Source: Nitrososphaerota archaeon
Lineage (GTDB): Archaea; Thermoproteota; Nitrososphaeria_A; Caldarchaeales; Caldarchaeaceae
Length of the DNA stretch: 64,000 nucleotides
Reading direction: 5' to 3'
Assembly: GCA_041641305.1 (NCBI GenBank)
Contig: JBEPYN010000002.1
Span: 288,001-352,000 of the forward strand
A model generated the notes under the pieces. The model was not told where the DNA came from and ran no database searches. It saw only the letters and a list, made by a program, of their open reading frames with translations. This document shows positions 805 to 64,000 of the stretch, piece by piece. The translations under genes were made by a program, and so were the position numbers. How positions within the stretch are numbered: the first letter of the stretch is position 1; the number at the start of each line of letters is the position of its first letter.

Positions 805-859
805 ACCTGTTTTCACGGCTTTGGACAAACATAATATATGATGTGTTTGCGCTCTCTTT

Positions 860-2498: not shown

Positions 2499-2598
2499 GG
2501 ACGCTGCGTCAGGATTTAAAGCTCTCGAGAAAACTCAAGCAATTGTAGCGAGTGCTCCAGTGTTTCAACTTAAATAACTGTCGGCGAAAAATCTGGAC

Positions 2599-4999: not shown

Positions 5000-5036
5000 T
5001 ATATGGAGTTAGATGATGCTCTTATATTTTGTCTTC

Positions 5037-5534: not shown

Positions 5535-5537
5535 TCC

Positions 5538-6671: not shown

Positions 6672-6770
6672 GTTATATGTTCACGGAGAGTGAAATCCCG
6701 GTTAAATATTAACGTGTATGTAATGTGTTTTGACAACGTTTAAATAAAGGTTACTGTTGAGAAATCCCTC

Positions 6771-8123: not shown

Positions 8124-8132
8124 GGCGATGAA

Positions 8133-10864: not shown

Positions 10865-10866
10865 AT

Positions 10867-11571: not shown

Positions 11572-12515
11572 GCCTGAAATTCGACTTAACTGTTGGCCCT
11601 TTTTTAGAGTGTCCCAAAAACGCAGTGGAGTTGAGCATTTACAGCGAGAAGCTTGGGTTTAACGGTGTCTGGGTCACCCACGACCCCTTGTGGGAAAACT
11701 CATGGGTAATAGCTGGAGGCATAGCGGCCAACACTTCAAAAATTCAAGTGGGGCCGGGCATCGTTAACCCGTTCAGCTCGACAAAAGTTGAGATTGCAAT
11801 GGGTGCAGCCACACTTCAAAACCTTTCAAATGGTCGTGCTGTGCTCGGCTTCGGCCCCGGGTCTAGAAAAATGCTTGAGGAAAGCGGGCTAAGACACGTA
11901 AACCTTCTCCAGACTCTTGACGAATCTGTCACCTATCTAAAAGAAGTCCTCAACCCCGCAACATCTCCGCTGAAAAGCAAACCCGTAAAACCCGTGGAGA
12001 TATACATCGGCTGCCAGTCTCCTACCATGCTTCGTAGAATAGGCAAATGGAGAGTGGGAGGGCTTATGTTGCTTACTCCCCCAAGCTTCGGCGAGGATGC
12101 ACTCCGTTATGTAAAAGAGGGCTACAGCGGGCAAATTCCATCTGATTTTCCCGGAAACCAGATAGCGTCAATACTATGTTCAATCGATACCGATGAAAAC
12201 AATGCGCGAAAAAGCTTCGCAAAATTCATTATCCACATACTTAGGTATCTGGCGGAGGTTCAGCTGAGAAAAATATCGCTAGACTATGATGATGTGGTTT
12301 TGCTAGAGCAAATATACCGTGAAGAGGGGTGGGAGGCTCTTCCAGAGAAAATCTACAGTCTAGGAGCGGTGGGAGTAGAGGGTCTCATCAAGACTGTTGA
12401 AAATCTTCACAGTCTCGGATTTACGAGGTTCAAGATCGGATCGCCGCTCGGCCCCGAACCCCGAAACGCCGTCAAGCTCATAGCCGAAAAAGTGTTAAGT
12501 TATTTCAGGAATTGA
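11568..12515 (+). CDS. LLM-class (luciferase-like, Mer-related) flavin/F420-dependent oxidoreductase
   Basis: GFNGVW, VGPGIVNPFS, LSNGRAVLGFGPG, IYIG, GSPLGP. Confidence 0.85.
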   Translation: MSLKFDLTVGPFLECPKNAVELSIYSEKLGFNGVWVTHDPLWENSWVIAGGIAANTSKIQVGPGIVNPFSSTKVEIAMGAATLQNLSNGRAVLGFGPGSRKMLEESGLRHVNLLQTLDESVTYLKEVLNPATSPLKSKPVKPVEIYIGCQSPTMLRRIGKWRVGGLMLLTPPSFGEDALRYVKEGYSGQIPSDFPGNQIASILCSIDTDENNARKSFAKFIIHILRYLAEVQLRKISLDYDDVVLLEQIYREEGWEALPEKIYSLGAVGVEGLIKTVENLHSLGFTRFKIGSPLGPEPRNAVKLIAEKVLSYFRN

Positions 12516-12877
12516 CCGAGTTTCGCGGCCGTTTCTTTCAGTTTAGACAAGATATCGAGACCTGTGGGAGGGTTAAGCGCCACCACAAGAACCTTGTCAT
12601 CTACTGGGAGCACGATGACGTTCACCTTTTCCATCGATGCAAAAACATAGTCCAGCGCTCCATAATATGCCCTGTTTTTCAGAAGCAGTAAACCAAACCT
12701 CGCAGTCTCCACGTCCACCTCGGCCGAGACCTCGGGCGGGTCAATGGAAGCCACACCAGGCCTCATCCCACCGCCCAGCCGCTTGCAATCGCCATCAAAA
12801 AGCTCAGCATACCTGATGTCTCTATGTAAGGTAAAAACCTCTTCAACAAATTTTTCATAACCCAGTTTGTCTTTCAA
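12500..12877 (-). CDS. Roadblock/profilin-like small sensor protein (resembles thaumarchaeal DUF6659)
   Basis: DIRYAELFDGDCKRLGGGMRPGV pattern, 125 aa. Confidence 0.6.
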   Translation of the reverse strand: MKDKLGYEKFVEEVFTLHRDIRYAELFDGDCKRLGGGMRPGVASIDPPEVSAEVDVETARFGLLLLKNRAYYGALDYVFASMEKVNVIVLPVDDKVLVVALNPPTGLDILSKLKETAAKLGQFLK

Positions 12878-12914
12878 GACAGTTTATCATCCTTCCTTGC
12901 TTTAAAAATATTTT

Positions 12915-13904
12915 TCACAAACCTGTCTTCAAGCCGCCGAGGACACGTCCAGTGAACTCTATTGCTTTACCCAAGTCCTCCCCCAGGGGAGGCCCGATGT
13001 TAAAGTGTTTAACACCCATTCTCATTAACTCACGAAACCTGTGAAGAATTTTTTGAGGCTCATCGTAAGTAGAGGTTATTGCAAGGTTGAACATTTTGGG
13101 TGTAACAAGCTCGATCGCCTCATCAATCAATTGCTCGGCTACAAGTTTTGCTATTGATGTGAAATCTTGTCGGCTCAGTCCCGCAGTGTTTAAAACCTCC
13201 TCGGAGAGCAGCGGCCCGTAATATGCGATAAGCTCCCGCAATTTTCTGCATGAGTTTAGCTCCTCCTTTGTCTCCGCGACATAGTACCATAGGCAGGCTG
13301 ATATATCTATACTGCTAACATCTCTTCCAACTTTTCGAGCTCCTTCATGGATTATTGGCAAAAATTTTTGAGCCGATTCCGGAGGTATGATGAGAGGAAG
13401 ACCACCGTCCCCAATTCTGCCTATAGCCTCAACAGTTTTTCTCCCCTGTCCACCAATGTAGATGGGTATTTTATGCGATACTTTGAAGGTTAATGCATTT
13501 GGCGGCCCTGTCCCGTTGTCAAGAAGTTTACGTAGCTTGTCAACGGCTGCGTAAAGTCCTTGCAGTGGTTTGTCAACGTTTAGGCCTGCCCATCTGAGTG
13601 TTTCAGGCGCCCCAACACCTATCCCCAGACAAAATCTTCCACCACTAAGCTCAGCCAAAGTAGCCGCCCGCATAGCTATCTCGACAACATTAGAGCTGAA
13701 AGGGTTAACGATAGCGGTGCCTAGTTTAATCAAAGACGTCGAAGCTGCAGCGGCTGATAAGACAACCCATGCATCGCGTTTGAACAGGTCCTCACAGTAC
13801 CAGAAGCCGTCGAAGCCGGTGTTTTCGCATAGTTCCGAAAGCTTGACTGCGGTGCGTGAGTCGCAGAGGTCGCTGTTAAGCCTAATGCTCAGAACAGTGT
13901 TCAA
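12915..13904 (-). CDS. LLM-class (Mer-related) oxidoreductase
   Basis: GFDGFWYCED, LGTAIVNPFS, LSGGRFCLGIGVG, IPIYIGGQG, GPPLG. Confidence 0.87.
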   Translation of the reverse strand: MNTVLSIRLNSDLCDSRTAVKLSELCENTGFDGFWYCEDLFKRDAWVVLSAAAASTSLIKLGTAIVNPFSSNVVEIAMRAATLAELSGGRFCLGIGVGAPETLRWAGLNVDKPLQGLYAAVDKLRKLLDNGTGPPNALTFKVSHKIPIYIGGQGRKTVEAIGRIGDGGLPLIIPPESAQKFLPIIHEGARKVGRDVSSIDISACLWYYVAETKEELNSCRKLRELIAYYGPLLSEEVLNTAGLSRQDFTSIAKLVAEQLIDEAIELVTPKMFNLAITSTYDEPQKILHRFRELMRMGVKHFNIGPPLGEDLGKAIEFTGRVLGGLKTGL

Positions 13905-16306
13905 CTTTGGTTTTTGATGAGGTGCCAGAGGGTTGATGGTTTGATGTGGCTGCTTACTATCTTGACCCCAAGCGCGTCCTCGATCGCGGCGGCTATCGCG
14001 GCGAGCGGTGATCCGCCGCCTTCTCCGACACCTCTCGTACCAAGAGGACTCGTGAGACTGGGTATGCCGAGGCTCGCTATTTTCTCTATCATGGGGACAT
14101 CGGCGGCTGTGGGTGCGAGGTAGTCGGCCAGGCTGGAGTTGAGGAGCTGTCCATCCTCGGAGTATTCGAAGTTTTCGTAAAGGGCCGCGGCGATGGCGTT
14201 GAACGCGGAGCCTATCACCTGTCCTCTGACTATCAGTGGATTAATCTCTCGGCCGCAGTCATCCACTATCGCGTAATCTAGAATCTTGACAGCCCCCGTC
14301 TCTGTATCTACTTCGACAACAGCGGCGTGGACTTGGTAAGAATAAGTGAGGGTCAGGTTGCCTCTTTTTTCTTCGGGGTCTGGGTAGGTGAAATCCGGTG
14401 CATAAACCGCGTGAGCGAACAGCCCTGGCTCTATGCCTTTGGGCAGTAGCCGTAGGTTTGACCACGCAACGTTCGCTATTTGCCAGATGGGTATTTTCTT
14501 GTCGCCGGAGATTGTAGTTACTTCACCGTTCTTGATGGTGAGGTTTTTCACATCGGTCTCCAGGAGCGCAGCCGCTATCTGGAGAACTTTGGCTCTAAGA
14601 GCTTGTGCCGCCTTGACGACAGCCGTTGCACCGAGGGCGGCAAACCGGCTCGCATACGTTCCTGAGTGTCCTGAGAACGGGTTGCTGAAGGAGTCAAACC
14701 CTATCAAAACCGTTACCATGTCTGGTGTAACTCCCAGCTCGTCGGCAACCAGCTGCCTAACCACGGTCTCGTGACCCTGTCCCTGAGGACTGCTGCTGAC
14801 AGCTGCTATGATGTTGCCCATGTTGTCGATTTTAACCCATGCCGCTTCACTGCCTCCAGACATGGGGAAGTTGGGATTAATTATCCTCACTTGGCCGAAG
14901 TTGTTTGAACCGGAGTCAAGGGTTACTCCTATTCCGATGCCGATACGTTTTCCACCGTCTGATTGCTGTTCTTTAATTTTACGCCATTTATCATAGTTAA
15001 TCAGCTCTAAGGCTTTGATGGTGGCCAGTTGGTAGTCTCCGCCGTCGTAGACACAGCCGCTCGGGGTCGTGTACGGCATCTCCTCTCTACGTATGTAGTT
15101 ACGCATCCTTATCTCGACGGGGCTTATGCCAAGTTTTTTGGCCGCAATATCCATGATTCTCTCTATCATCCACATGTGCTGCAGTCGGGAATAGCCTCTG
15201 ACAGGGCCTGTTGGACACTTGTTGGTGGTCACCGAGTAAAAATCTACGTAAAGGTCCTTGAATCTATAGACGTTGCACGAGACCTGTGCCCATATCACCG
15301 CTCCCAGAGGTTCATAGCGTGGATAAGCACCTATGTCATCAATTGCTTTAACCTTCAAGCCGAGCAGGGTACCGTCCCGCTTAAATCCCGCTTTTACGTG
15401 GAAGGTGCGTTCGTTGCAATGCGATGACGAGGCTGACAAATTTTCTCTCCTCGTCTCCACCCATTTGACTGGGCGTCGGACAAGCATCGACACGGCGCCC
15501 AGCAAAGTCATGTAGACATAGTTGTTGATCTTGGTTCCGAAACCTCCTCCGATATCTCTGCTTATCATCCTAATTCTGCTCAAGGGTTTGCCTAAGGCCA
15601 CGCTTATCATGAATCCTACAACCATGGGCATCTGGTTGGGTGCGTAAATTGTTAAGATATCATCTTGTGCATTATAGTCTGCGACTACGACGTTGTTCTC
15701 AAGAGGTATAGCGCTGTATCTGTTGAAACGTAGTGTCTCCTCGATGATTACCTCAGCTTTAGCAAGAGCTTTCTCGATGTCACCATAGTTATAGACACCA
15801 TGCCACACCACGTTGCTTCCCAACTCTTCATGAACAACCGGTGCATCGGACTCCAGTGCTTTTTCACCATCCACCACCGCTTGCAGTGGCTGGTACTCCA
15901 CCTCTATTTGCTCAAGCGCATCATATGCTGTGTACATGTCTTCTGCGACGACGACAGCCACTGGCTCGCCCATGTAGCGAACCTTGTCGACTGCCATGCA
16001 GTAATCCTTTATCCTATCTGCTGGAGGTGGAGCGACTTGTGGAAAAGGATTGGTTATAGCCGCTATGTCTTTGCCTGTGACGACTTTAATCACGCCCGGT
16101 ATCTTCTCAGCCTTTGACACATCGATGTTCTTAATATAAGCGTGGGCGAACGGGCTTCTGAGTATAGCCGCGTAAACCATGTCCTTTAAACGAAGGTCAT
16201 CGGTGAACTGGCCTTTGCCGGTTATCAACCGCCTGTCCTCATATCTTTTGAGAGGCCTACCGACCCAACCCACTTCCTCCACTTTTTCCTCGAGATAGAG
16301 AGACAC
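13901..16306 (-). CDS. Xanthine dehydrogenase family molybdopterin-binding large subunit (CoxL-like, not a form I CODH)
   Basis: RYEDRRLITGKG, GGGFG, QGQGHET, GTYASR, RGVGEGG. The active-site loop is PTGPVRGYSR rather than AYxCSFR. Confidence 0.92.
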   Translation of the reverse strand: MSLYLEEKVEEVGWVGRPLKRYEDRRLITGKGQFTDDLRLKDMVYAAILRSPFAHAYIKNIDVSKAEKIPGVIKVVTGKDIAAITNPFPQVAPPPADRIKDYCMAVDKVRYMGEPVAVVVAEDMYTAYDALEQIEVEYQPLQAVVDGEKALESDAPVVHEELGSNVVWHGVYNYGDIEKALAKAEVIIEETLRFNRYSAIPLENNVVVADYNAQDDILTIYAPNQMPMVVGFMISVALGKPLSRIRMISRDIGGGFGTKINNYVYMTLLGAVSMLVRRPVKWVETRRENLSASSSHCNERTFHVKAGFKRDGTLLGLKVKAIDDIGAYPRYEPLGAVIWAQVSCNVYRFKDLYVDFYSVTTNKCPTGPVRGYSRLQHMWMIERIMDIAAKKLGISPVEIRMRNYIRREEMPYTTPSGCVYDGGDYQLATIKALELINYDKWRKIKEQQSDGGKRIGIGIGVTLDSGSNNFGQVRIINPNFPMSGGSEAAWVKIDNMGNIIAAVSSSPQGQGHETVVRQLVADELGVTPDMVTVLIGFDSFSNPFSGHSGTYASRFAALGATAVVKAAQALRAKVLQIAAALLETDVKNLTIKNGEVTTISGDKKIPIWQIANVAWSNLRLLPKGIEPGLFAHAVYAPDFTYPDPEEKRGNLTLTYSYQVHAAVVEVDTETGAVKILDYAIVDDCGREINPLIVRGQVIGSAFNAIAAALYENFEYSEDGQLLNSSLADYLAPTAADVPMIEKIASLGIPSLTSPLGTRGVGEGGGSPLAAIAAAIEDALGVKIVSSHIKPSTLWHLIKNQS

Positions 16307-52727: not shown

Positions 52728-53375
52728 TTGAAGATAGTGGCGGAGGACGCTGAATCCATTACGCTTGACGTTACAGACTTACCGCATCCTCTGGCGAATG
52801 CGCTGAGGCGGATGATTATCCGCGAGGTACCCACCATGGCTGTTGAGGAGATTCTGGTTATTGAGAATTCGTCGGCCATGACTAATGAGGTGCTGGCTCA
52901 CAGGATCTCTCTCATCCCCTTCATAACTGATTTGGATAACTTTAACGTGGCCGAGGAATGTAGTTGCCAGAGTAGGCTTGGCTGCGAAAAATGTGTCGTC
53001 AGGTTCGTGTTGAGAGCGGAAGCATCGGAACAGCCGATAACGGTCTACAGCCGCGACATCAAGCCAGAGAGACATGACACGAAGGTCGCGCCCTTCGACG
53101 GAAACATCCCGATAGTGGCTCTTGCCCCTCGTCAGAAAATAGAGCTGGAGCTGTATGTAAGACTCGGGAGAGGGAAGAAACATGCAAAATGGCAGTCGGG
53201 AATAGCTACTCTCTATCAAGAGGATTCCCGCTGGCTTCTTTACGTCGAGAGCTACGGGTTTCTGCCGCCGCGGCGGATGGTTCTCGAAGCCGCCAGAATA
53301 GTTAAAACGAGGATTGAAGAAATCGGCGCAGGTCTGAGGGAGTTGATGGCCCGTGAGCCGCAGGGTGCAGGCTGA
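52728..53375 (+). CDS. rpoD: RNA polymerase subunit D (Rpo3)
   Basis: ANALRR, ENSS, LAHRISLIP, CSC...CEKC, HAKW. The TTG start was chosen from TTTTAAA at 52694-52700. Confidence 0.93.
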   Translation: MKIVAEDAESITLDVTDLPHPLANALRRMIIREVPTMAVEEILVIENSSAMTNEVLAHRISLIPFITDLDNFNVAEECSCQSRLGCEKCVVRFVLRAEASEQPITVYSRDIKPERHDTKVAPFDGNIPIVALAPRQKIELELYVRLGRGKKHAKWQSGIATLYQEDSRWLLYVESYGFLPPRRMVLEAARIVKTRIEEIGAGLRELMAREPQGAG

Positions 53376-53688
53376 GATAACTGTGAGGAAGCTGGGCGGC
53401 AAGACCCGGTTCGCCAAACGGTTGCTGAAGGAGCTGAGGCGTAGCAGACGCTCCACCAGAGAGGTTAACATAAGCCGCCTCCAGCGCAACACCGTGGACA
53501 ACGAAGTGGTTTTTGTGCCGGGCAAGGTTCTCGGACACGGTTATCTAACGAAGAAGCTAACTGTCGGCGCCTTCGCCTTCTCACAATCAGCCATCCAGAA
53601 AATACAGAAAGCCGGTGGAAGGACCCTTTTGCTGGAAGAGTTTTTGAGGGAGTTTGGGAAAGGTTCGGGGGTTAGGATAATTGGCTGA
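53353..53688 (+). CDS. rpl18e: 50S ribosomal protein L18e
   Basis: VNISRL, VPGKVLG, FSQSA..KI..AGG. Confidence 0.93.
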   Translation: MSRRVQAEITVRKLGGKTRFAKRLLKELRRSRRSTREVNISRLQRNTVDNEVVFVPGKVLGHGYLTKKLTVGAFAFSQSAIQKIQKAGGRTLLLEEFLREFGKGSGVRIIG

Positions 53689-54136
53689 GAAAACATATGT
53701 CGTGGACGCAGAGGGATACAGGCTCGGCAGACTAGCATCCTATGTAGCCAAGCTCCTGCTCAAAGGCCACCGGGTCACAGTCATTAACGCGGAGAAAACC
53801 ATCATTACGGGGAACAAGTCAGCCATTCTCGAACACTATCTGATGCTGAGAAACAGGAAACAGTTCTCCTCTCACAAGAAAATTACGGTCTGGTATCCCA
53901 CCAAGCCCGACGCAATTCTGAGGCTGGCGATAACGAGGATGCTGCCGCGGAAGAAGCCGCGGGGACGTGAGGCGGCGAAGAGGCTGGTGGTGTTGAAGGG
54001 CCCCGCCAACGTGGAGGGTGAGAAGATAGAGTTTGAGGACGCGAAGCTCACAAAGTTATATAACCGCTCTGCGAAAATAGTCAGATACATCACGCTCGAG
54101 GAGCTGTCTAAGATGCTTAGAGGTGGTAGAGAATGA
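53681..54136 (+). CDS. rpl13p: 50S ribosomal protein L13 (uL13)
   Basis: LGRLASYVAK, INAEK..ITG, MLP.K..RG. Confidence 0.93.
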   Translation: MAEKTYVVDAEGYRLGRLASYVAKLLLKGHRVTVINAEKTIITGNKSAILEHYLMLRNRKQFSSHKKITVWYPTKPDAILRLAITRMLPRKKPRGREAAKRLVVLKGPANVEGEKIEFEDAKLTKLYNRSAKIVRYITLEELSKMLRGGRE

Positions 54137-54528
54137 GGAAAACAGAGCATATTTTCGTGGGGAAACGGAAAACATCTGTGGCAAAGGTTTTCCTCCGTCC
54201 TGGGAAAGGAAACGTCTTCGTCAACAAGACACCTATCGAACTCTTCAACGAGTTTTTCAAGAGCAAAGTCCTGGCACCGCTGATGCTTTTACCTGAGTTT
54301 TGGAAGAAACACGACTTTCACGTAACTGTGAAAGGCGGCGGTGTCATGTCTTCGGCTGAGGCCATAGCCATAGCGGTTTCGAAGGCCGCTGCAGCCGAGT
54401 CCGAGGAATACAAGCAGAGGCTTGAAAGCTATGACAGAAGCCTGCTGGTCGATGACCCGAGGAGAGCGGAGCCCAAGAAGCCCAACAGGAGGAGCGCTCG
54501 ACGGAAGCCGCAGAAAAGCTACAGGTGA
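54133..54528 (+). CDS. rps9p: 30S ribosomal protein S9 (uS9)
   Basis: GKRKTSVA, VKGGG, YDRSLLVDDPRR.EPKK, QKSYR. Confidence 0.95.
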   Translation: MRKTEHIFVGKRKTSVAKVFLRPGKGNVFVNKTPIELFNEFFKSKVLAPLMLLPEFWKKHDFHVTVKGGGVMSSAEAIAIAVSKAAAAESEEYKQRLESYDRSLLVDDPRRAEPKKPNRRSARRKPQKSYR

Positions 54529-54540
54529 GAAGCGGAGTTG

Positions 54541-54756
54541 ATGTTTCCAATCCGATGCTTCAGCTGCGGCCGCGTTATCGCCCACAAATGGGACGAGTAT
54601 CAGAGAAGGGTGTCTGAGGGAGAGCATCCGAAGGACGTCCTCGACAGCCTCGGCTTCAAAAGATACTGCTGCAGAAGAATGTTCATCTCAGCGGTCAACG
54701 TCATGGACGAGCTCATAGAGTTTCATCAAAAATACTCCGAGGCCACTAGTGCATAG
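54541..54756 (+). CDS. rpoN: RNA polymerase subunit N (Rpo10)
   Basis: PIRCFSCG, RYCCRRM. Confidence 0.96.
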   Translation: MFPIRCFSCGRVIAHKWDEYQRRVSEGEHPKDVLDSLGFKRYCCRRMFISAVNVMDELIEFHQKYSEATSA

Positions 54757-54758
54757 CC

Positions 54759-56006
54759 ATGGGCCGTGAATCATTCACGATAACCGGTGCGGAGGCATGG
54801 GTTGTCCTCGACAGCCGGGGAAGCGAAACCATCGAGGTAACTCTATCCTCGGGCAGGGTGTCAGCCACCGCGTCGGCGCCCTCCGGAAAAAGCAGGGGGA
54901 GCAGGGAAGCTGTTCCGTTCCCCGAAGGCGGCGCCAAACAGTCTGTCAAAATTTTCAGCAGCACGTTGCGGGGCAGACTCGTTGGACGTGACCCATCTGA
55001 CCAAACAGGCATAGACACGTTGCTCAAGGAAGCTGACGGCACAGAGAACTTTTCAAAAATAGGCGGGAACTTGGCCTACGCTGTCTCGGCCTGCGCTGTA
55101 AAGCTCGCGGCCATGCTGATGGAGAAGCACATATGGAGGCGTGTGGCTGACTTGTCCGGGCTTGCTCCCGTCTATCCTATTCCTCTTGGCAACGTATTGG
55201 GTGGAGGGGCGCATGCGGGCGAAGGCGCTCCAGATATACAGGAGTTTCTCGTTTTTCCAAAGAAACCGGGAAGCATTGAGGAGGCTGTTAGGACGAATGT
55301 GGAGGTGCATAGGAGGCTTGGCAGGGTTTTGGCGAAAAAGGTCGGTGGATACGGTGGAGGGAAAGGTGACGAGGGTGCCTATGCGCCACCCGTCGACGAC
55401 GAAAACGCTCTGCGGGCTGTGAAAGAGGCGTCGGAGGGATTGGATGTAGGGTTTGGACTGGACGTCGCCGCCTCAAGCCTCTACGATGCATCTCAGAAAA
55501 AATATCATTACAGGAACCGTGGAAAACATCTGACCCGTGAGCAGCACATGCAACACATTTCAGAGCTTGTCGAGAGGTATGGGATAAGCTATGTCGAGGA
55601 CCCGTTTGAGGAAACGGATGTGGAAGGGTTTGCTGAGCTGTGCAAAGCTTTTCCGAAGCTGCTTGTATGCGGAGACGACCTCGTCGTAACACGTGCGGAG
55701 CTGATTAGAATGGCTTCTGAGAAAAGGGCCGTGAGGGCGGTTATTCTTAAGCCCAACCAGGTCGGCACGGTAACGGACACGGTGGAGGCTGCGAAGGAGG
55801 CTGAGAGAAGGGGGATTGTGCGTGTTGTGTCGCATAGGTCGGGTGAGACATGCGACAGCTTTTTGACGCATCTGGCCATCGGGCTGGGGGGCAAGTTTAT
55901 TAAGGCAGGTGTAGCGGGGGGTGAAAGGGTGGCTAAGGCAAATGAGCTGCTGCGGATATGGTACATGGTTGGCGGCTCGATTCACTTGCAGGAGGCTGAT
56001 GTATAA
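54759..56006 (+). CDS. eno: Enolase
   Basis: LDSRG, GDEG, EDPF, GDDL, KPNQVGT, SHRSGET. Confidence 0.96.
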   Translation: MGRESFTITGAEAWVVLDSRGSETIEVTLSSGRVSATASAPSGKSRGSREAVPFPEGGAKQSVKIFSSTLRGRLVGRDPSDQTGIDTLLKEADGTENFSKIGGNLAYAVSACAVKLAAMLMEKHIWRRVADLSGLAPVYPIPLGNVLGGGAHAGEGAPDIQEFLVFPKKPGSIEEAVRTNVEVHRRLGRVLAKKVGGYGGGKGDEGAYAPPVDDENALRAVKEASEGLDVGFGLDVAASSLYDASQKKYHYRNRGKHLTREQHMQHISELVERYGISYVEDPFEETDVEGFAELCKAFPKLLVCGDDLVVTRAELIRMASEKRAVRAVILKPNQVGTVTDTVEAAKEAERRGIVRVVSHRSGETCDSFLTHLAIGLGGKFIKAGVAGGERVAKANELLRIWYMVGGSIHLQEADV

Positions 56007-56632
56007 TGACGATGTCGGCTGAACAGGAAGCGGAGATACTTGAGCAGCTTGTCAAATACAACGTTCACGTAGGCTCACGCATCAAGGTCAAGCACATGGA
56101 GCCCTACATCTTCAGGATGAGGTATGACGGCGTCTACCTTTTCGAGGTCAAGAAGATTCTTACGCGGCTTAACCTCGCCGCTAAGCTGATATCATTCTAC
56201 GAGCCCAACGAGGTGCTGGCTGTCTCGACACACGTATTCGGCATGAAGGCTGTGCAGAAGTTTGCGGAGCTGACGGGCGGCATGGCTATAGCGGGCAAGA
56301 TGATGGCGGGCATGCTCACAAACAGGACGCTCAAAAACTACACCGAGCCCTCAATCGTGATTATCTCCGACCCGCGTTACGATGCGCAGGCCCTTGAAGA
56401 AGCGGCTATAGCCCGTATTCCCGTGATAGCTATGTGCAGCACAGACAACACATGCTCCAACGTCGACCTCGTGATACCGATGAACAACAGAAGCAGAACA
56501 TCGCTGCCCTATGCTTTCTGGTATCTGACGAGACGTGTGCTCGAGGAGAGAGGCCAGCTCACACCAGATTTCGACGCCTTGGTGAAGCCCGAGGACTTCA
56601 TGGCGCTTCCCAGCTCCGGCGAAGCAGAGTAG
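56006..56632 (+). CDS. rps2p: 30S ribosomal protein S2 (uS2)
   Basis: VHVG, LTN...EP, DP..D.QA..EA, VDLVIPMNN. Confidence 0.95.
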   Translation: MTMSAEQEAEILEQLVKYNVHVGSRIKVKHMEPYIFRMRYDGVYLFEVKKILTRLNLAAKLISFYEPNEVLAVSTHVFGMKAVQKFAELTGGMAIAGKMMAGMLTNRTLKNYTEPSIVIISDPRYDAQALEEAAIARIPVIAMCSTDNTCSNVDLVIPMNNRSRTSLPYAFWYLTRRVLEERGQLTPDFDALVKPEDFMALPSSGEAE

Positions 56633-58745
56633 AGAAAGGCTGGATAACCGTCTCATACGCACGCCGCAGAAAATCCACATAATATTCTTCATCATAGTCG
56701 CTGCTGCGGAGAAGCTGTAGCGGAACCCCTGCTCCCCGTTTCACTATGTAGCTGACAGACTGGCCCGGTGAAACAGAGGCCCCCATCTGCTTCAGCATCC
56801 TAGCCGCCTGCACATGCTTAACCTCCTTGTCATAACTCTCCACAGGCCCTGACACACTCCTCGTCACAGCAAGTTCCTCGGCTTCGACGCCGCCAAGGTA
56901 AACCATGCGCATATACTTCCTGAAAATTTCATGACATTCTCCGAGCTTTTGAGGCACATCCTGCAACGAACATATCTCGGCCAGCCTCGCGAGAAGCTCG
57001 TGCTGCATCTTGCGCACAATCGGCGGCGTATCTCTTCTCCTTGCCTCTATTCCTCTGCACTTGACTCTGCCACCGATGTATGCGCCGAAGTATCTGTTGT
57101 TTACCGGTCTTCCCGGGCTGGTGCGTGAGTCGAGGAAGGCTATCCACTTGAACGTGCCCTCGTAGCCGACCGGCAGACCCAGCCTCTTCTCCAACACCTC
57201 TCCAAAGGCCCTGTAATCATCCTCGGAAGCATCTCTCCGCCAAATCCATAGACAGTCGACTATGCCATGCAGGACCTTGAAACCATGTTCCTCGGCGAGC
57301 TTGACGCTTCTGAGCAGGGTGTCGCGGGCGAGGGCGCAGACAGCCATGTGCGCCTCCCGGCTCCCGAACTTCGCCTTCTTGTATCCCAGGTAGCCGAACG
57401 AGGTGACAAGTATCCACTTCAACGCATCGGCCCGAGCCTTGTAGACCTTGTCACCCATCTCTTGGTAAAGCCTCTTGTACTCGAGCCTTCTACGCAAGGG
57501 CTCCTCGATGGCCCGTGGCACTATGCCTCGCCATTTTCTGCAGACGTGGTAGCCGAGCTCCGGTATGTCGTTGCCGCTGCAGCATCGACAGTTCACGGTT
57601 TCGCCGCTGATGTTGTGCTTCAGCATGAGCATGGGGTAGAGGCTGTGGAAATCCAGCTCACCAACATTCCAGTAAACACCGGGCTGATGGTCGAGTATCC
57701 ACCCGCCTCTGTCAGCTTTTAGTAGCTCCTTCCCAGTCATGCATGTGGGTCTGCCGCATTCAACAGGTATCAACACATCGTTGAGAAAAGCTTGATGATA
57801 CTGGAGCGAGGTCATGCAGCGGCCGATGGTGTAGCGTGCCGCATCCTGCACCGGAAGCCTGGCGACACGCGCCACCTCCACAACACCATGAAGCCCCGTC
57901 TCCCTGTAAAGCATCGAATTATCCGCATCTATGTGAAGTCTTCCACGGAGCCTGTAGCCTGAATAGCTGTGGTAAACTCTTCCATAGCTCATGTAGGAGA
58001 AGCCCCGGCTCCTGCTACGTGGGTCCTCTTCCCGGCCCAGCCGAAGCTCTACACCGTTGACACGGGCCCTGTACCGGAGATATGGCAAGAGAAACGAGTC
58101 GCCCCCATATGTGACAACCACATCCACATCAAGCTCGTCGAGAACATGCCCCAGCTCCGTGAGAACCTTCTCCTCATCACCGTCGAGAACAATCTCCTCA
58201 CCGTCGCAGACAACCTTCACGTTTTTGAGGGGATGGATGAAACGTGGGAAAGGAGTCGCCGAGGCCACCGTGGCCTCGAGATAAGCAACATGGAGAAAAG
58301 AGATGTCGTAGAAGAGGTTGCCGAGGTCCTCGGCCGCATACAGCCTACCATCCTTCTCCTCGACAGCGGCTGTCGGAGCAAGCCCGTGGCTGTAGAGAAA
58401 CTCCTGCGCAGGCGGGAGGTCCACGTTGTAGACACGTATGCCGCGGCAGCACCACTTCTCAGAAACAAACTCGGCGAGAAAACGCCTCTCCGAAGGAGGC
58501 GTCTCCACCTCCAAGGCTTCAACCAACCCAGTCCCCAAAACCCTCTTCACAACCCGTCCAACCACATAACGCTCCCCAAGAACCCTCTCAACCTCTGTTA
58601 AAACATCAAGAGGACCCGCAAAGTAGAGCCGCGGCCACCACCCAACAACAACCCGCACAACACCAGACAACCCTCTAACCCAAGCCACCACACCATCATC
58701 ACGACACCAAACATCGAGAAGAAACCCAACCACACAAACAAGCAA
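56598..58745 (-). CDS. polB2: Family B DNA polymerase, archaeal B2 group
   Basis: LDFHSLYP, KWILVTSFGYLGY and HGIVDC (in place of YGDTD) are the B2-type substitutions. Confidence 0.85.
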   Translation of the reverse strand: MLVCVVGFLLDVWCRDDGVVAWVRGLSGVVRVVVGWWPRLYFAGPLDVLTEVERVLGERYVVGRVVKRVLGTGLVEALEVETPPSERRFLAEFVSEKWCCRGIRVYNVDLPPAQEFLYSHGLAPTAAVEEKDGRLYAAEDLGNLFYDISFLHVAYLEATVASATPFPRFIHPLKNVKVVCDGEEIVLDGDEEKVLTELGHVLDELDVDVVVTYGGDSFLLPYLRYRARVNGVELRLGREEDPRSRSRGFSYMSYGRVYHSYSGYRLRGRLHIDADNSMLYRETGLHGVVEVARVARLPVQDAARYTIGRCMTSLQYHQAFLNDVLIPVECGRPTCMTGKELLKADRGGWILDHQPGVYWNVGELDFHSLYPMLMLKHNISGETVNCRCCSGNDIPELGYHVCRKWRGIVPRAIEEPLRRRLEYKRLYQEMGDKVYKARADALKWILVTSFGYLGYKKAKFGSREAHMAVCALARDTLLRSVKLAEEHGFKVLHGIVDCLWIWRRDASEDDYRAFGEVLEKRLGLPVGYEGTFKWIAFLDSRTSPGRPVNNRYFGAYIGGRVKCRGIEARRRDTPPIVRKMQHELLARLAEICSLQDVPQKLGECHEIFRKYMRMVYLGGVEAEELAVTRSVSGPVESYDKEVKHVQAARMLKQMGASVSPGQSVSYIVKRGAGVPLQLLRSSDYDEEYYVDFLRRAYETVIQPFSTLLRRSWEAP

Positions 58746-58800
58746 ACAAACTGGAATAAATCATGAGAGAGCACCGCGAAAATGCGGCACCAACCTTTAT

Positions 58801-58857
58801 CATAGATTCCCTGTATGTCTTGAAGTTAAGCATAATCAGGGGGTAACGGATGTTCAC
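58801..58857 (-). pseudogene. tpiA: 5' fragment of archaeal triosephosphate isomerase
   Basis: GTG-initiated MNIRYPLIMLNFKTYRESM matches the archaeal TIM N-terminus (P.I..NFKTY.E). TTTAAAA lies about 25 nt upstream and similarity ends after 19 codons. Confidence 0.55.
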
Positions 58858-58970
58858 GATGTCTCTTCATCAGGTTTGTTTTAAAGGATGCAGAGAATAT
58901 TTGAGCGTTGTCTGGCCGAGAAAACCATCCGCCTAAAGCCATAACACACGGTTAAGTAGGCTGGGGAGAA

Positions 58971-59044
58971 CCTTCTAAGCTGGGGGTCGTGAGTCAGACC
59001 TTTACAGTAGGCGGCCGGTAGGTTTCAAGTCCCACCCGGGCCCA
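58971..59044 (+). pseudogene. 3' half of tRNA-Arg(TCT)-like gene with T-arm intron-like insert (att-site remnant or split-tRNA piece)
   Basis: C-CTTCTAA-GCTGG (anticodon loop plus 3' stem), GGGTC, GTG[about 30-nt hairpin insert]G(G/T)TTCAAGTCCCAC, CGGGCCC-A. No GGGCCCG 5' half was found nearby. Confidence 0.6.
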
Positions 59045-59073
59045 ATAGCCTACAACATCATATTGGTCGTTGT

Positions 59074-59853
59074 TTATTCTATTCTTGGTGCTTGGTATAT
59101 TGTTAATAAGATATCCTTTATCTTAGCTCTAATAGCCATAGGAGCTGGCTTATTACTACCATGTATATAAAAGCATAGACTAACCCCCATACAACCAAGC
59201 CTATCAAGACCTTTAACACTCTCATAAATATACCCGAAGGAAAAACACTGCCTATCCAAATAACCCCATCCAGGAGCCTTAACAACCTTCTCCATATTAT
59301 CGTCCCAAACCTTTAAAACCCCATCATGATAACTAAACCTGACATAGTCATAGTTGTTTGTGAAGATAGCTAATATGGATAGAAGCTCTTTTGTGGGGAT
59401 TTTGACCTCTGCGCATCTATCATGCTCAATATCCCATACAAGCTCCTCAACCTTCAAACCAGCATCATTCTCCCTATAAACAACCATATCACCATACCTA
59501 ATCACCCCAATCTGAGAAAAATCATAGACAAGAGGTGTGTCTGATTTGATGCTTCTAAGGGCTTTAAGAGCGTTCTCAAGGTTTAAAAGACCTAACGGAG
59601 GCTCAACAACAGGGTTCTCAAAAACCCCGTCAACGGTTAAACGGACACAGGTAACATGGGTAGGGCTTAAAACGGCGCTGTTTAAAACACCATTCCTCAC
59701 ATAAACCCCGAAATTATCGAAATAATGCGAGCGTAGCATCTTGAAAAACGCCTTAAGCCTTGAGGCTGGCATAGCTATACGCAACGGCTTAACCTCAACC
59801 CTCTCAACAGCATCCATCTCAACCCTCTCAAGAAACATATCCAAGCTTGTCAT
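59074..59853 (-). CDS. Divergent PCNA-like sliding clamp
   Basis: 259 aa; LSPTHVTCVRL (cf. MDPSHVAL), LNLENALKALR, FSFGYI and C-terminal YQAPRIE (cf. LAPRIE). Confidence 0.75.
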   Translation of the reverse strand: MTSLDMFLERVEMDAVERVEVKPLRIAMPASRLKAFFKMLRSHYFDNFGVYVRNGVLNSAVLSPTHVTCVRLTVDGVFENPVVEPPLGLLNLENALKALRSIKSDTPLVYDFSQIGVIRYGDMVVYRENDAGLKVEELVWDIEHDRCAEVKIPTKELLSILAIFTNNYDYVRFSYHDGVLKVWDDNMEKVVKAPGWGYLDRQCFSFGYIYESVKGLDRLGCMGVSLCFYIHGSNKPAPMAIRAKIKDILLTIYQAPRIE

Positions 59854-59955
59854 GGCTAAACCATCTTATCCAAAGTATTTAACCGACTTAGGCCAACAAG
59901 GGAATGTAACTATCTCCTCATAAGAACGCTGGTCTTCATACAACCTTCAAAAACC

Positions 59956-60594
59956 TTATCCCTGACCATTATTGTTCGGCTCTTCCTCATTTTCGTCAAA
60001 ATCGAAATCATACCGCTTAACATCCCCTCTTCTCTTTCTCGGCTTCTCTCTTAGTTTAAGACCACACATAGGGCAGTAAGGCTTCTCAAGCTTGAGCTGA
60101 AAAGCGGTAAGACAATGGGAGCAAAAACCATGACCTTTTCTATAGAAAGGCTGTCTCGACGCTGGATAGAAAAAGGCAAGCTTCTCGTCAGGCTTATAAG
60201 ACATACACAGCATATTATCCTCAACCCATAAATCAACCCTGATACGGTTGCCGTCCCAGCCGTTGAACAGGCCAGCATATTGGCTCGGTATCCTAAGCCT
60301 CAGCCCCGCTGTCGTGTCGTAACGGCCCGTAAACCTCTCCCCCCTCACAACCGCTATATAATCGCCCTTCGGAGGTAACTCAAATTCCTTAAAAACACGG
60401 ATAGGTAGCTTAAGCCTCAAAGTGCCAGACGCTTCATGTATAATCCTCGCCTCCATGCCTTCAAGAACCTTCTTAGGCGAAAAATCATCAATACGGCTAT
60501 TCATAGCATTCTCTTTTCCATGAAACGATAAAGGCTTTGCCTGAACATCTTCATCAGGTTTGGGTGGCTGAAAATCCTCTTCACGACCGTTCAT
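59956..60594 (-). CDS. Hypothetical protein with AbrB-like repeats and C-terminal Zn ribbon
   Basis: GTLRLKLP / GLRLRIP segments; CSHC...CPMCG..LR.KPR. Confidence 0.6.
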   Translation of the reverse strand: MNGREEDFQPPKPDEDVQAKPLSFHGKENAMNSRIDDFSPKKVLEGMEARIIHEASGTLRLKLPIRVFKEFELPPKGDYIAVVRGERFTGRYDTTAGLRLRIPSQYAGLFNGWDGNRIRVDLWVEDNMLCMSYKPDEKLAFFYPASRQPFYRKGHGFCSHCLTAFQLKLEKPYCPMCGLKLREKPRKRRGDVKRYDFDFDENEEEPNNNGQG

Positions 60595-60792
60595 AGCTTA
60601 TTCTACTTGATGAAATTATAAAAGCGTTAAACAATCTCTGAAAACCAGAAATTCTGGCTCTCCACGGCTTAGAAAGCCAAAATACCTCAAAAAACCATGT
60701 CATAAACACTTTGGCCACAAAAATGCAAAATTTCGCCACTACCTGGCGTAAATCGTCGAAATAAAAACAAGGAGTTTAGCGAAAGCCATACT

Positions 60793-61263
60793 TCATACCT
60801 CACTCTCCGTCGTCTTCGCCTTCTCCTCGATAAGGTCTGCGATACGTTTCAGGAAATCAGCATCGCTCTCATCCAAGGTCATCCAGCTCTCCATCGGAGG
60901 AATGAAACGTAGCTCGTAATAATGTAGAAAAGGCATCATACCACCCTTGAAAAACACCCTCAGCTTGAACCCTCTCTTCTCTCCAGCCAACCTAAGCCAC
61001 CTCGTTATCCTGCGGTCTGGACAAACAAATTTCCGAGCCAGCCCTTGTCTCTCAACCTCGTCCAGCCTCTCCATGGCCGCGTCTCTCAAATCAGGGCTTC
61101 TGAGGAAAACCAGCAGACAACGGCACCCATCCGTGGCAAACATAAACCATAGATGCGGATGGTTATCAGTCGTGGCGGTAACAACCTCCAAAAACGGCGT
61201 ATCATTAGAAATTCCTGTTCTCACATCCCTTATAGCGTTCACATCACAGAGCAAGGAAACCAC
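60793..61263 (-). CDS. Hypothetical (element) protein
   Basis: 156-aa ORF overlapping the upstream ORF, preceded by GAGGTGG. Confidence 0.6.
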   Translation of the reverse strand: MVSLLCDVNAIRDVRTGISNDTPFLEVVTATTDNHPHLWFMFATDGCRCLLVFLRSPDLRDAAMERLDEVERQGLARKFVCPDRRITRWLRLAGEKRGFKLRVFFKGGMMPFLHYYELRFIPPMESWMTLDESDADFLKRIADLIEEKAKTTESEV

Positions 61264-61481
61264 CTCTCTACCTCACTATTATAGGGCAGAAAATCCTCAA
61301 CATCCTTACCCGCCATCATAGCCCAAAGCCTGAAATACAACACGAAATTCAGAAGCCTTCCATAGCTGGGCCGCTCCCTCAACCCGTCCAACTTCAGCAA
61401 CAATTGAACAGGCATGTCGTTGCTAAATCTTCTCCACACTTCTTCACACCAATCCTGAACCGAACGCTGATGAACGCTCAT
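61239..61481 (-). CDS. Hypothetical (element) protein
   Basis: 80-aa ORF with TTTTTATT about 25 nt upstream. Confidence 0.55.
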   Translation of the reverse strand: MSVHQRSVQDWCEEVWRRFSNDMPVQLLLKLDGLRERPSYGRLLNFVLYFRLWAMMAGKDVEDFLPYNSEVERWFPCSVM

Positions 61482-61599
61482 GTCTGAAACATCTCAACCT
61501 AAGAATAAAAACAGAAAAGGCCTGCCCAGTATTTGTCGGCCTTCACCAATTCAGACATGGCCTTAAATAATTAAATCCATCCAAGGCATAGCGTATTGT

Positions 61600-62043
61600 A
61601 TGTTGTCATACGTGGCCGCAATGCTATACGCACACGTCCTCAGAGACCATGCACCGCCCTCTCCCCCAATAACGATATCAATTGATGCTTTCAAGGCTTA
61701 TGTCAAGGAACTTGGCGTAATTGACATGATAGGTGAGGAGGAGGTTGAGCCGTATCTGAGCATGCTCGCTAAACTCGGATTTATTGAAAAATATGAAAAC
61801 AACAAGATAACGATACATGAGGAGGGCTGGGAACTACTCAACTCTCATTGGTTTGAACTTAGAAAGTCATGGCTGAGGAAAATAAGTATCGTTAATGAAT
61901 TGTTGTCTAAGATTGAGGACAGCCTTACAGTAAGTCGGGGCTCACCGAATAGGGCGGGAGAAAACACCGTAAAATTAGTTCTGACCGCGCCACCCACAGC
62001 ATCTATGACGATTGTATTCATGTTCGACACCTCAGGCCGCTAA
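61600..62043 (+). CDS. Winged-helix-like protein, sole plus-strand gene of the element (candidate regulator)
   Basis: YLSMLAKLGFIEK...ITIHEEG wHTH wing pattern; TTAAAT upstream. Confidence 0.55.
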   Translation: MLSYVAAMLYAHVLRDHAPPSPPITISIDAFKAYVKELGVIDMIGEEEVEPYLSMLAKLGFIEKYENNKITIHEEGWELLNSHWFELRKSWLRKISIVNELLSKIEDSLTVSRGSPNRAGENTVKLVLTAPPTASMTIVFMFDTSGR

Positions 62044-62452
62044 ACTCCTTGAATACATGAGAAGAGCGTTTTCAAAAAACCGTCTCTGCTCATTTGTAAG
62101 AGCTATCTCTGTGATGATGTGGTTATCAAGGTTATCATTTGAGAAAACGGCGACGTAAAAAACACCAGAAGACGCCACCGCCATCAACCACTCCTCTACA
62201 TCTTCGAAAACCCCTAAATATTCTTCGCTGGAATGAAGCAGAACCCTGACGAGGAGCCTTCCATCAAACATGAAATTGCAACAATGAGGGGTTTCAACCT
62301 TTTCCACAAAAACTACTATACACGGGCGCCCACGTATTACTGCGAGTTTAATATCACTCTTGGGGAACGACGACAAGCTCCACCACCTCTCCATCCCTCA
62401 TAAATTTCTTCAAAGCTTCAGGCTTTGAAGAAACACGGTAAACTGTTTTCAT
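62032..62452 (-). CDS. Hypothetical protein, probably frameshifted in a C4 run near 62362-62365
   Basis: MKTVYRVSSKPEALKKFMRDGEVVELVVVP joins KSDIKLAV... after removing one C. TTTAAA lies about 25 nt upstream of ATG 62452. Confidence 0.55.
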
Positions 62453-62493
62453 ACCTGCTTCTAAACCCGCTAAACATTTAAACAGCTCAGGCC

Positions 62494-62853
62494 TCATTCT
62501 TCAACCAAACCCGTCCGAGGACGCATTTGGAGTGCTTCGCTGATATGCATGTATGTATAACTGTTGAAGCTGAGGCTCTGCCCCCGATTTATCATATGTG
62601 ATTTATTCAATTCAGAGGCTTTCTTCTCCGCTTCGTCCTGGGTGTAAGCGGTGTCCACAACCGTAAACTCACGCATGTAACCGTTGTCAAACTCCTGAAG
62701 GACGAGGTAAAAGCTATGGCTGTCGCATACGACAGCACCCATATCGCTTAAATAAATTGCTTGTTTACCGACAAGCGGTTTAGAACATAGAAGGCATGAG
62801 CCATAGCGGGCTGTGATGCTGTAAACTCTCGGAGGCTTCAAATAATACCTCAT
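62494..62853 (-). CDS. Zn-finger-containing hypothetical protein
   Basis: CLLC...CDSH; ATGA overlap with the upstream gene. Confidence 0.6.
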   Translation of the reverse strand: MRYYLKPPRVYSITARYGSCLLCSKPLVGKQAIYLSDMGAVVCDSHSFYLVLQEFDNGYMREFTVVDTAYTQDEAEKKASELNKSHMINRGQSLSFNSYTYMHISEALQMRPRTGLVEE

Positions 62854-63077
62854 TCAGCCTCATCCTCGTCTACACAGTGTTCCACTACTTTTGAGCCTGC
62901 TCTGCTCATCTGCTCGTAAAGCCAATCCTCAACAGCCTCGTATTGCGCCCGATACTTCTCAAATACATGGTCAGCCCTCGGGTCTGATACACAGTCTCCA
63001 CATACATAGAAAATCAGCTCAATCTCGAAATCAAATTTCTCTTTCTTACCGCAAACCTCACATTTATACACACTCAT
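62850..63077 (-). CDS. Small Zn-finger protein
   Basis: CEVC...CGDC. Confidence 0.65.
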   Translation of the reverse strand: MSVYKCEVCGKKEKFDFEIELIFYVCGDCVSDPRADHVFEKYRAQYEAVEDWLYEQMSRAGSKVVEHCVDEDEAE

Positions 63078-63102
63078 GCCAACAAATTGTCAAGCCATGT
63101 AT

Positions 63103-63330
63103 TTAATCGGATGAGGCCCCCGCATGTTTTCTATCCATAAAATCACGAATTAAAAGCTCTCTATGACCGCATTTAGGACATTCATAGTCAATAGGTTCAC
63201 AATCTACATCCTCAACATAGCTTGGCTGAATATTCGGCGATGGAAAGACCTTGAAAATTTTGACCACGGAGAGATGCTCTAACAAATATGTAAGCTTCTC
63301 TCCACAGCCTGGACACTTAAACCTCGCCAC
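63103..63330 (-). CDS. Small Zn-ribbon protein
   Basis: CPGC...CPKC, with GGAG-rich RBS upstream. Confidence 0.65.
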   Translation of the reverse strand: MARFKCPGCGEKLTYLLEHLSVVKIFKVFPSPNIQPSYVEDVDCEPIDYECPKCGHRELLIRDFMDRKHAGASSD

Positions 63331-64000
63331 CTACTCCCCCCTCTTTCTGTCTCAAATAAGACAGGAGCGCGTCATCTACAAACACGTCATAGAACCCTTT
63401 AATCTCGCTACTGCGCTTAACCACATGAGGCACCCCGCGGAAATCAAGGAAATGCGACAACTCCTTGGCATGAAGCCGCGACAACGTATATTTCCTTCCC
63501 TCGCCTCTCTCCAGAGCTTCCATGCGTTTTTTAAGGATGCTGAAAAGCCTAAGCCATAGAAGCGCCATTCCTTTGACATATCTGTAATCGTCTCCATAGT
63601 ATAGCCCTTGTTTGTAGCATTCCTCGATAACCTTCAACTTTCTCTTCATGTGTCTGATTGCTTTATGAACCGTCCCGTGGTCAATAAGGGCGACAACATA
63701 TGCCTGCATCAACGGCATCCTCGGCCACGGCGCAGTAGAGTGGACATACGGTATCTTCCCCGCTAAAGCCTTCTCGATAAGGGGCACAACCTCTTTTCTA
63801 TGCCTCTCTGCACCTATTCCACGGTAATCATGTAAAATGTCTCCTATAATCGCCTTGACATCAACGTCTCGTATAACCAACTTCTCGTATATGTCGGACT
63901 CAAGGACGACCTCGTAGTGATAAGCATCTATTATCTTCGCGATAACCCCCCAACGATTATGGTGCTGAGAAAGCTCAGGGTCAAAACATCCATTAATTTT
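63317..64000 (-). CDS. Hypothetical protein, 5' end outside window
   Basis: The reading frame of the listed 187-aa ORF stays open to position 64000 (KINGCFDPELSQHHNRWG...). Confidence 0.65.
   Translation of the reverse strand, partial: KINGCFDPELSQHHNRWGVIAKIIDAYHYEVVLESDIYEKLVIRDVDVKAIIGDILHDYRGIGAERHRKEVVPLIEKALAGKIPYVHSTAPWPRMPLMQAYVVALIDHGTVHKAIRHMKRKLKVIEECYKQGLYYGDDYRYVKGMALLWLRLFSILKKRMEALERGEGRKYTLSRLHAKELSHFLDFRGVPHVVKRSSEIKGFYDVFVDDALLSYLRQKEGGVGGEV

Follow-up and report, generated by a model that had tools for sequence, protein, structure and literature searches.

What kind of mobile DNA begins at the right-hand end of the 64,000-nucleotide (nt) stretch analysed here (hereafter the window), and what would it gain from a sliding clamp of its own beside that of its host? 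The window lies on contig C2 of the source genome (G000, contigs C1 and C2), a Candidatus Caldarchaeum species (hot-spring archaeon). An original prediction, made from the sequence alone, had taken the part from position 59045 onward for a provirus-like element whose first open reading frame (ORF) encodes a highly divergent PCNA. Comparison with related genomes, together with structure prediction, gives a partly different answer: window positions 58801-64000 are the left arm of a 116.7-kb integrated plasmid-like mega-element, whose terminal gene encodes a 259-aa protein that, as modelled, truly has a clamp fold and is probably a very divergent homologue of PCNA. This account turns on three features.

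58800..58801, no strand: left junction of the 116.7-kb insert, host DNA followed by element DNA, placed by collinearity with the sister species G009 and by a wild contig.
59074..59853, minus strand: PCNA-fold sliding clamp gene, 259 aa, terminal gene of the element, recognised by AlphaFold2, Foldseek, VIA and motifs.
59875..59894, minus strand: promoter motif of the element's own type, GGCCTAAGTCGGTTAAATAC, some 25 nt upstream of where the clamp ORF starts.

The limits of the insert were defined against the closest relative, a sister species with a complete genome of 1,680,938 bp (G009), whose PolB-family protein is 90% identical to that of G000. Synteny between the two genomes breaks at window 58800/58801 (C2:346800/346801); a real boundary had been predicted, but it lies 245 nt to the left of the proposed start at 59045. 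Collinearity with G009 extends to C2:346800 and is regained at C2:463468, the intervening 116.7 kb of G000 (C2:346801-463467) forming the insert, which is placed between a PolB-family gene (window 56598-58745, minus strand, 715 aa) and an oxidoreductase gene. The empty site of G009 reads CACCAACCTTTAT/AACATCATCC, with the slash marking the insertion point, and the corresponding junctions of G000 read CAACCTTTAT/CATAGATT on the left and GTATGTTTAT/AACATCATCC on the right; their overlap amounts to 5 nt, TTTAT only. In addition, a hot-spring metagenome contig, about 90% identical to the PolB flank, joins both flanks directly and represents a second empty site. Such a presence/absence polymorphism with a precise empty site, observed in G009 and in the wild contig, identifies an integrated mobile element, in agreement with the original prediction, and the region is not conserved across relatives: it is absent from both the sister species and the wild relative.

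The transition is also apparent in composition and gene organisation. GC content is 0.54-0.56 over 53001-59000 and 0.42-0.47 over 59001-64000, with the low-GC stretch reaching approximately C2:357000, beyond the window. Between 59074 and 64000, 12 of the 13 non-overlapping ORFs are on the minus strand and one is on the plus strand; they are short, several of them encode small CxxC zinc-ribbon proteins, and none scores above a Pfam or PHROG family threshold. The abrupt shift from core genes to short orphan and zinc-finger ORFs, nearly all on one strand, had thus been described correctly, as had the presence of TATA boxes about 25 nt upstream of several of them: in the clamp gene and at least seven others, a TTAAAT TATA-like box, preceded by GGCC, ends some 20-30 nt ahead of the start codon. 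The motif GGCC-N5-9-[GAT]TT[AT]AAT has 11 occurrences in the 116.7-kb element and 9 in the 1.54 Mb that make up the rest of the genome, corresponding to a 16-fold enrichment.

An exhaustive HMMER search of 1.84 billion protein representatives identified 10 relatives of the clamp, all of them apparently from Caldarchaeales elements. Among these, one has the length of the clamp and is 88% identical to it, and three are full-length proteins with 26-31% identity. A single-chain AlphaFold2 model built on an alignment of these relatives reached a predicted local distance difference test (pLDDT) score of 84.4 and a predicted template modelling (TM) score of 0.82, and contains four beta-alpha-beta-beta-beta units according to DSSP. 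When this model was compared with the PDB by Foldseek, the best 500 matches were all PCNA (probability 1, TM 0.65-0.77), at 12-20% sequence identity to the clamp, and VIA-align superposed model residues 23-259 on PCNA residues 1-255 (Z 21-22, root-mean-square deviation 2.8 A, about 225 residues). The superposition covers both domains over the full length, so that the predicted clamp fold is borne out by the model; viral PCNAs match it as well, and BFVD holds many viral clamps of the same fold. Alignment by MAFFT with the host PCNA (C2:643848-644618, 256 aa) pairs LSPTHV of the clamp with MDPAHV and the terminal YQAPRIE with LIAPRLE. Both PCNA motifs, (D/S)PxHV in strand C1 and the C-terminal (Y/L)xAP(R/K)(I/L)E, are therefore present, with A255 and P256 invariant across the clamp family, and the PCNA length and the SPTHV and APRIE landmarks singled out in the original prediction hold. 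In a wild variant of the gene there are about 60 substitutions, and its three indels all measure exactly 3 nt, a pattern that fits coding constraint.

A single-protein search with the clamp detected no relative in IMG/VR contigs or GTDB genome contigs, and a metagenome scan with the same protein returned a single locus (L028, contig VAPR01000068.1 of another metagenome-assembled genome, positions 300-15500). About 17 genes of the left arm, including the clamp, recur there in a different order, and the left arm can on that account be regarded as a conserved module. The clamp of this contig is 30% identical to that of G000 and its module neighbours are 55-83% identical, the clamp being the fastest-evolving gene of the module; its position is internal, not terminal. 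The L028 module ends with the zinc-ribbon gene adjoining a host malate/lactate dehydrogenase gene.

The cargo of the element was surveyed by a family scan in which 56 of its approximately 146 ORFs were searched with Pfam, 10 of them also with PHROGs. Replication and repair functions are represented by a class II-type ribonucleotide reductase, the primase subunit PriL, NurA and HerA, as well as XPB-, Hel308- and XPD-like helicases. Further genes encode a PLD nuclease, MYG1, DprA, a radical-SAM enzyme, an N6-methyltransferase, a tubulin-like GTPase and glycosyltransferases. Type IV pilus ATPase and platform genes (T2SSE, T2SSF) are also present, and a 771-aa protein matches DUF87/HerA, FtsK_SpoIIIE and TrwB_AAD_bind (E 9e-12 to 8e-7). 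No relaxase was found among the ORFs scanned; the element is probably conjugative. Since it contains neither an RFC nor a PolB gene, it must rely on the clamp loader and polymerases of its host.

How the insert reached its site is suggested by its far end. The last gene (C2:461971-462819) encodes a 282-aa protein of a multi-copy family, whose model has a pLDDT of 69, with low confidence in the N-terminal part, and whose best 20 Foldseek rows are all IS621, ISCro4, TasR or TasH (probability 0.96-1.0, TM approximately 0.4). The 170 nt that follow this gene fold into a long hairpin (-46.6 kcal/mol), the internal loops of which hold CCAACCTTTA (sense) and the reverse complement of TTTATAACAT (antisense). 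Jointly these two segments spell the G009 empty site, a guide-target match that was equalled in 2 of 20000 shuffles. An independent second case is provided by a G009 copy (L004), a 1,856-nt insert relative to G000 C1:685773-685776, in which the loops GCTTGATTT and AACCCATAA spell the copy's own target, GCTTGATTTATGGGTT. The insertion of the 116.7-kb element would accordingly be the work of the IS110/TasR-like protein at its far end, guided by the adjacent hairpin RNA. Four Tas-like copies exist in G000, the fourth of which is the one at the far end of the clamp-headed insert.

Both ends of the insert contain short segments of foreign origin, two of which lie in the window.

58802..58885, no strand: 84-nt copied segment, 88% identical to G009:1391357-1391440 and 76% identical to its home position, G000 C1:307949-308032.
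58930..59044, plus strand: tRNA-like 3' fragment (T-arm and acceptor-like part, 59013-59042), forming inverted repeat I1 with the 3' end of tRNA-Ala(GGC).

The 84-nt segment probably represents a flank acquired at a previous site; contigs of runs X16 and X11 match this segment alone, with other DNA on both sides. ARAGORN reports the tRNA-like fragment only when its threshold is relaxed, the acceptor stem then being poor, and Rfam has no match in the gap at the left junction, so that by Rfam it is not a functional tRNA. At the right end, C2:462985-463463 reproduces, at 87% identity, the initial 480 nt of host gatD (C1:748289-747812). The tRNA-like fragment and the gatD copy look like flanks captured at earlier insertion sites. 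Short gatD pieces also adjoin G009 copies (L010).

With regard to the function of the clamp, it is probable, on fold, motifs and gene content taken together, that it acts as a ring loaded by host RFC and serves the replication and repair enzymes of the element. We infer a sequence of events in which the clamp would be expressed from its element-specific promoter and would form a predicted ring of its own; host RFC would load this ring, given that the element has no clamp loader. On element DNA the clamp would tether a polymerase together with the PriL primase, the XPB-, XPD- and Hel308-like helicases and NurA-HerA, presumably during replication or transfer-associated DNA synthesis.

Several observations weigh against this interpretation. 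No sequence-profile method sees the clamp as a PCNA, and sequence-family membership fails: the Pfam scan gave no match at E<=1 (PCNA_N PF00705 and PCNA_C PF02747 included), PHROGs contained no family for it, phmmer and a family profile run against PDB sequences found no PCNA but only chance WD40 or kinase matches, and hhalign against the host PCNA gave a probability of 0.5%. Homology to PCNA consequently relies on the fold and two short motifs. The channel of the modelled clamp is moderately basic and no more: its four inner helices carry 8 K/R and 4 D/E residues, with four K/R and no acidic residue in helix 30-42, and the predicted isoelectric point is 6.2 versus 5.1 for the host PCNA. A scan of the element ORFs for PCNA-interacting protein (PIP) boxes yielded two weak terminal matches and no convincing terminal box. 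Transcription of the clamp gene is likely, not proven. Assembled contigs of two metatranscriptome libraries, both from one study, match 59285-60518, comprising the clamp and zinc-ribbon genes, at 100% identity and leave the adjacent PolB flank uncovered, which is suggestive of expression; the runs, however, were chosen using this same stretch, and DNA carry-over is possible. Parts of the stretch that these contigs do not cover are no sign of silence. Finally, as the family scan covered 56 of about 146 ORFs, a hidden capsid gene is possible.

The most serious competitor to the replication role arises from small relatives of the element. In Ca. Caldiarchaeum subterraneum, Sugahara et al. (2012) described a 1,868-bp insertion sequence composed of regions "a" (545 bp, 6 copies) and "b", linked it to tRNA gene disruption, considered "a" to be non-coding and to serve recombination, saw in "b" a recombinase of generic kind, and suggested an origin from a pNOB8-type plasmid (PMC3293823). 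The repeated unit of G009 is this insertion sequence. By sequence comparison, region "a" is a truncated clamp gene, homologous to the 3' two thirds of the full-length one, and "b" is the Tas-like gene. The clamp family of G009 (16 matches) consists only of N-terminally truncated frames of about 190 codons. Among approximately 11 clamp loci, 8 directly adjoin a Tas-like gene in divergent orientation, with members down to 29-53% mutual identity, and the repeated unit begins at the clamp stop codon, which is also exactly where the element ends in the wild strain (run X16). The ratio of nonsynonymous to synonymous substitution rates (dN/dS) among the mini-element copies is 0.08-0.24 for the C-terminal 134 codons, 0.41-0.73 for the 5' part and 0.14-0.25 for the Tas-like gene. 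A 134-codon ORF with a TTG start, equivalent to one clamp domain, is kept in the G009 mini-elements at L004:1498-1902 and L008:1645-2049.

The clamp, or its C-terminal domain, might on this evidence be an accessory of the RNA-guided IS110/TasR-like module that tethers the recombinase or nuclease to DNA or to forks, rather than part of a replisome. Such a role would account for the divergent juxtaposition across distant family members, for the coincidence of the clamp stop codon with the element end, for the similar dN/dS of the C-terminal codons and the Tas-like gene, and for the transfer of a 1.86-kb unit including a clamp remnant, as one piece, into a guide-spelled site. It also has precedent in transposase-clamp interplay, bacterial transposases and TnsE making such use of the beta clamp (PMC3971601, PMC4549789). 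However, a clamp is missing beside three of the four Tas-like copies of G000, one of which has a truncated zinc-ribbon gene in its place: an 86-aa ORF (L011:1073-1333, G000 C2:517904-518164) that is a 46% identical, truncated homologue of a 212-aa zinc-ribbon protein encoded next to the clamp. The clamp of L028 is not at the end of its module, and the G009 copies cannot make a normal two-domain clamp because the first 60-90 residues are missing. The whole pattern fits internal deletions of mega-elements in which the gene that happened to be leftmost survives, and dN/dS values measured between paralogues can stem from one master copy under selection. An accessory role is therefore considered unlikely. 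A stronger form of the idea, in which the clamp would be a dedicated partner of the IS110/TasR-like machinery, reducible to a single 134-residue domain in 1.9-kb mini-elements and holding or aiming the guide-RNA enzyme on target or replicating DNA, is given a slightly smaller chance still. The simplest reading of the small units is that mini-elements arise by internal deletion of mega-elements, keeping whichever gene was leftmost. The truncated zinc-ribbon ORF of L011 parallels the truncated clamp of the G009 mini-elements.

By comparison with the replication role, a decoy or takeover function is improbable. The clamp would in that case not be a processivity factor but would re-route or poison the host PCNA network, through mixed rings or by sequestering PIP-box proteins. 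The absence of an own polymerase and clamp loader and the rapid divergence of the clamp relative to its module neighbours would be compatible with such a function, yet at 12-19% identity to cellular PCNAs conserved subunit interfaces with the host PCNA are unlikely.

The original prediction went further in assigning this DNA to an integrated virus, as its early or replication region, with a clamp that may serve a viral replisome, and this must now be regarded as very unlikely. PCNA is encoded by some archaeal viruses and integrated virus-like elements (TKV3, PMC3914693; Asgard viruses, PMC11529989), viral clamps in BFVD share the fold, a CRISPR spacer targets the element (detailed below), and small orphan ORFs are numerous. 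Nevertheless, the 56 ORFs scanned include no capsid, portal, terminase or tail gene, no clamp relative turned up among IMG/VR contigs, and the cargo is of plasmid or conjugation type (pilus ATPase and platform, HerA/FtsK/TrwB-like ATPase, tubulin-like GTPase). A check of the adjacent sequence, as suggested in that prediction, did recover a primase subunit (PriL), but no tyrosine integrase or att direct repeat and, among the ORFs scanned, no capsid/terminase: the tyrosine integrase family PF00589 has no match in the whole G000 genome, and the attachment (att) site search across L001 gave chance-level direct repeats only, the 30-nt tRNA-like match being inverted, not direct. This 117-kb element, integrated by an IS110/Tas-like module, is plasmid-like rather than a provirus, and the virus reading is not supported. 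It is equally implausible that the ORF is a decaying, functionless PCNA paralogue, a view to which its extreme divergence and the truncated or stop-containing copies in G009 and G013 might lead, as the 259-aa frame is intact with a confident two-domain model, a same-length homologue at 88% and full-length homologues at 26-31% exist, the wild variant has in-frame indels only, RNA-library contigs cover the gene and a promoter motif of its own precedes it.

Additional PCNA copies on mobile elements of archaea have been known before (PMC3914693, PMC11529989). The clamp of the mega-element resembles PCNA2 (TK0582) of TKV3 in Thermococcus kodakarensis and other "shell" PCNAs of archaeal plasmids and viruses (Raymann et al. 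2014, PMC3914693) in being an additional clamp on an integrated element beside an essential host PCNA. TK0582, however, is recognisable by sequence and its structure has been solved (3LX2, among the Foldseek matches), whereas the present clamp escapes Pfam, hhalign and PDB profile searches; TKV3 is a small virus-like element with a tyrosine integrase, in contrast to a 117-kb element with an RNA-guided module. Similarly, the PCNA-like proteins of Asgard viruses (Opia, Nidhogg, Skoll; PMC11529989) are clamps of archaeal mobile elements identified mainly via structure models, but those genomes also encode capsid and terminase, and no viral hallmark was found here among the 56 ORFs scanned. With respect to the end gene, IS621 and ISCro4 (PDB 8WT6, 9T56) and TIGR-TasR/TasH (PDB 9MTY; PMC12045711) share its fold and likewise have an adjacent RNA with two site-matching guides. 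Unlike in IS110 bridge-RNA and TIGR-Tas systems, both guides here read the target, one per flank and on opposite strands, and the elements hold up to 115 kb of cargo along with host flanks that were apparently captured. Thaumarchaeal integrative-conjugative elements (Krupovic et al. 2019, PMC6563490) are comparable in being large, in having conjugation-type ATPase genes and in residing in a related lineage, but they use tyrosine integrases and att sites, and PMC6563490 makes no mention of PCNA or a sliding clamp. The published Caldiarchaeum insertion sequence belongs to the same family, its "b" being the 282/284-aa IS110/Tas-like gene, and in either case fragments of tRNA adjoin the elements; it differs in that "a" is now identified as a clamp remnant whose full-length gene heads the 117-kb version.

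What is new is therefore the extreme divergence of the clamp, its terminal position on an RNA-guided mega-element and the identification of region "a" as a remnant of the clamp gene. The clamp family is so divergent that structure prediction alone reveals it, and the mega-element imports a replication and repair toolkit into a poorly known archaeal order, its reliance on the host loader and polymerases constituting a testable host-element interface. Because region "a" is a truncated clamp gene, small insertion sequences look like cut-down versions of RNA-guided elements of the 100-kb class. If the clamp cooperated with the guide-RNA enzyme, this would bear on large-DNA insertion by RNA-guided systems, and if it were a dedicated partner, it would introduce an accessory principle that is new among programmable recombinases or nucleases.

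The other features of the left arm are as follows.

59956..60594, minus strand: 212-aa protein with a C-terminal zinc ribbon; weak Pfam DZR_2/RING-type matches.
60095..60128, no strand: 34-mer protospacer, matched with 1 mismatch in environmental contigs between two CRISPR repeats of host type CTGATCCCGCAAGAGGGAATTGAAAG.
60793..61263, minus strand: 156-aa orphan ORF with a 32% identical homologue in L028.
61600..62043, plus strand: 147-aa ORF showing a weak signal for a winged helix (HTH_45, below cut-off at E 0.003), the sole plus-strand gene of this stretch.
62494..62853, minus strand: 119-aa Cys-rich ORF with a 48% identical homologue in L028.
62850-63077 and 63103-63330, minus strand: two 75-aa zinc-ribbon ORFs, matching many zinc-ribbon families, all below cut-off.
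63317..64000, minus strand: C-terminal two thirds of a 327-aa orphan protein, 55% identical in L028, whose gene extends to window-equivalent 64300.

The protospacer falls in the gene for the 212-aa zinc-ribbon protein. In X16 DNA and X12 RNA-library contigs the 34-mer is flanked by two copies of GATCCCGCGAGAGGGAATTGAAAG, which is the G000 array repeat with one change; because this environmental spacer sits between G000-type repeats, the CRISPR systems of related cells target the element. The spacer search proposed in the original prediction was therefore productive, with the match coming from the environment and none of the 114 CRISPR spacers of G000 itself matching the element. The 212-aa zinc-ribbon family recurs beside IS110/Tas-like genes and is multi-copy in G000, G011 and G013. 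ESM Atlas offered no usable lead for the 327-aa orphan protein or for a 346-aa one, and the 346-aa island ORF, although it looked like a paralogue of a 345-aa ORF at 8 kb distance, was judged not to be one (E 0.19).

Some further observations concern genes in and around the element. The ORFs just upstream of two Tas-like genes of G000 (L014:892-1497 and L012:2329-3150) share a C-terminal tail, ...HDL(W/Y)HEYA(L/I)V(F/L)RKVV, and may represent a further companion gene that recurs in these elements. The 715-aa PolB-family gene that adjoins the insertion site is kept in 11 of the 11 genomes of the genus searched, at 62-90% identity; its DNA_pol_B profile scores are weak (41.8 and 30.6 bits), and it may be a divergent or inactive PolB paralogue. 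Within the element, a tRNA-Ala(GGC) lies among accessory genes (L001:13097-13202, minus strand; C2:358097-358202) and contains a 38-nt insert in the T-loop region. ARAGORN, which reports no tRNA on L001 even when introns are allowed, misses this gene, and Rfam finds it with 31.7 bits.

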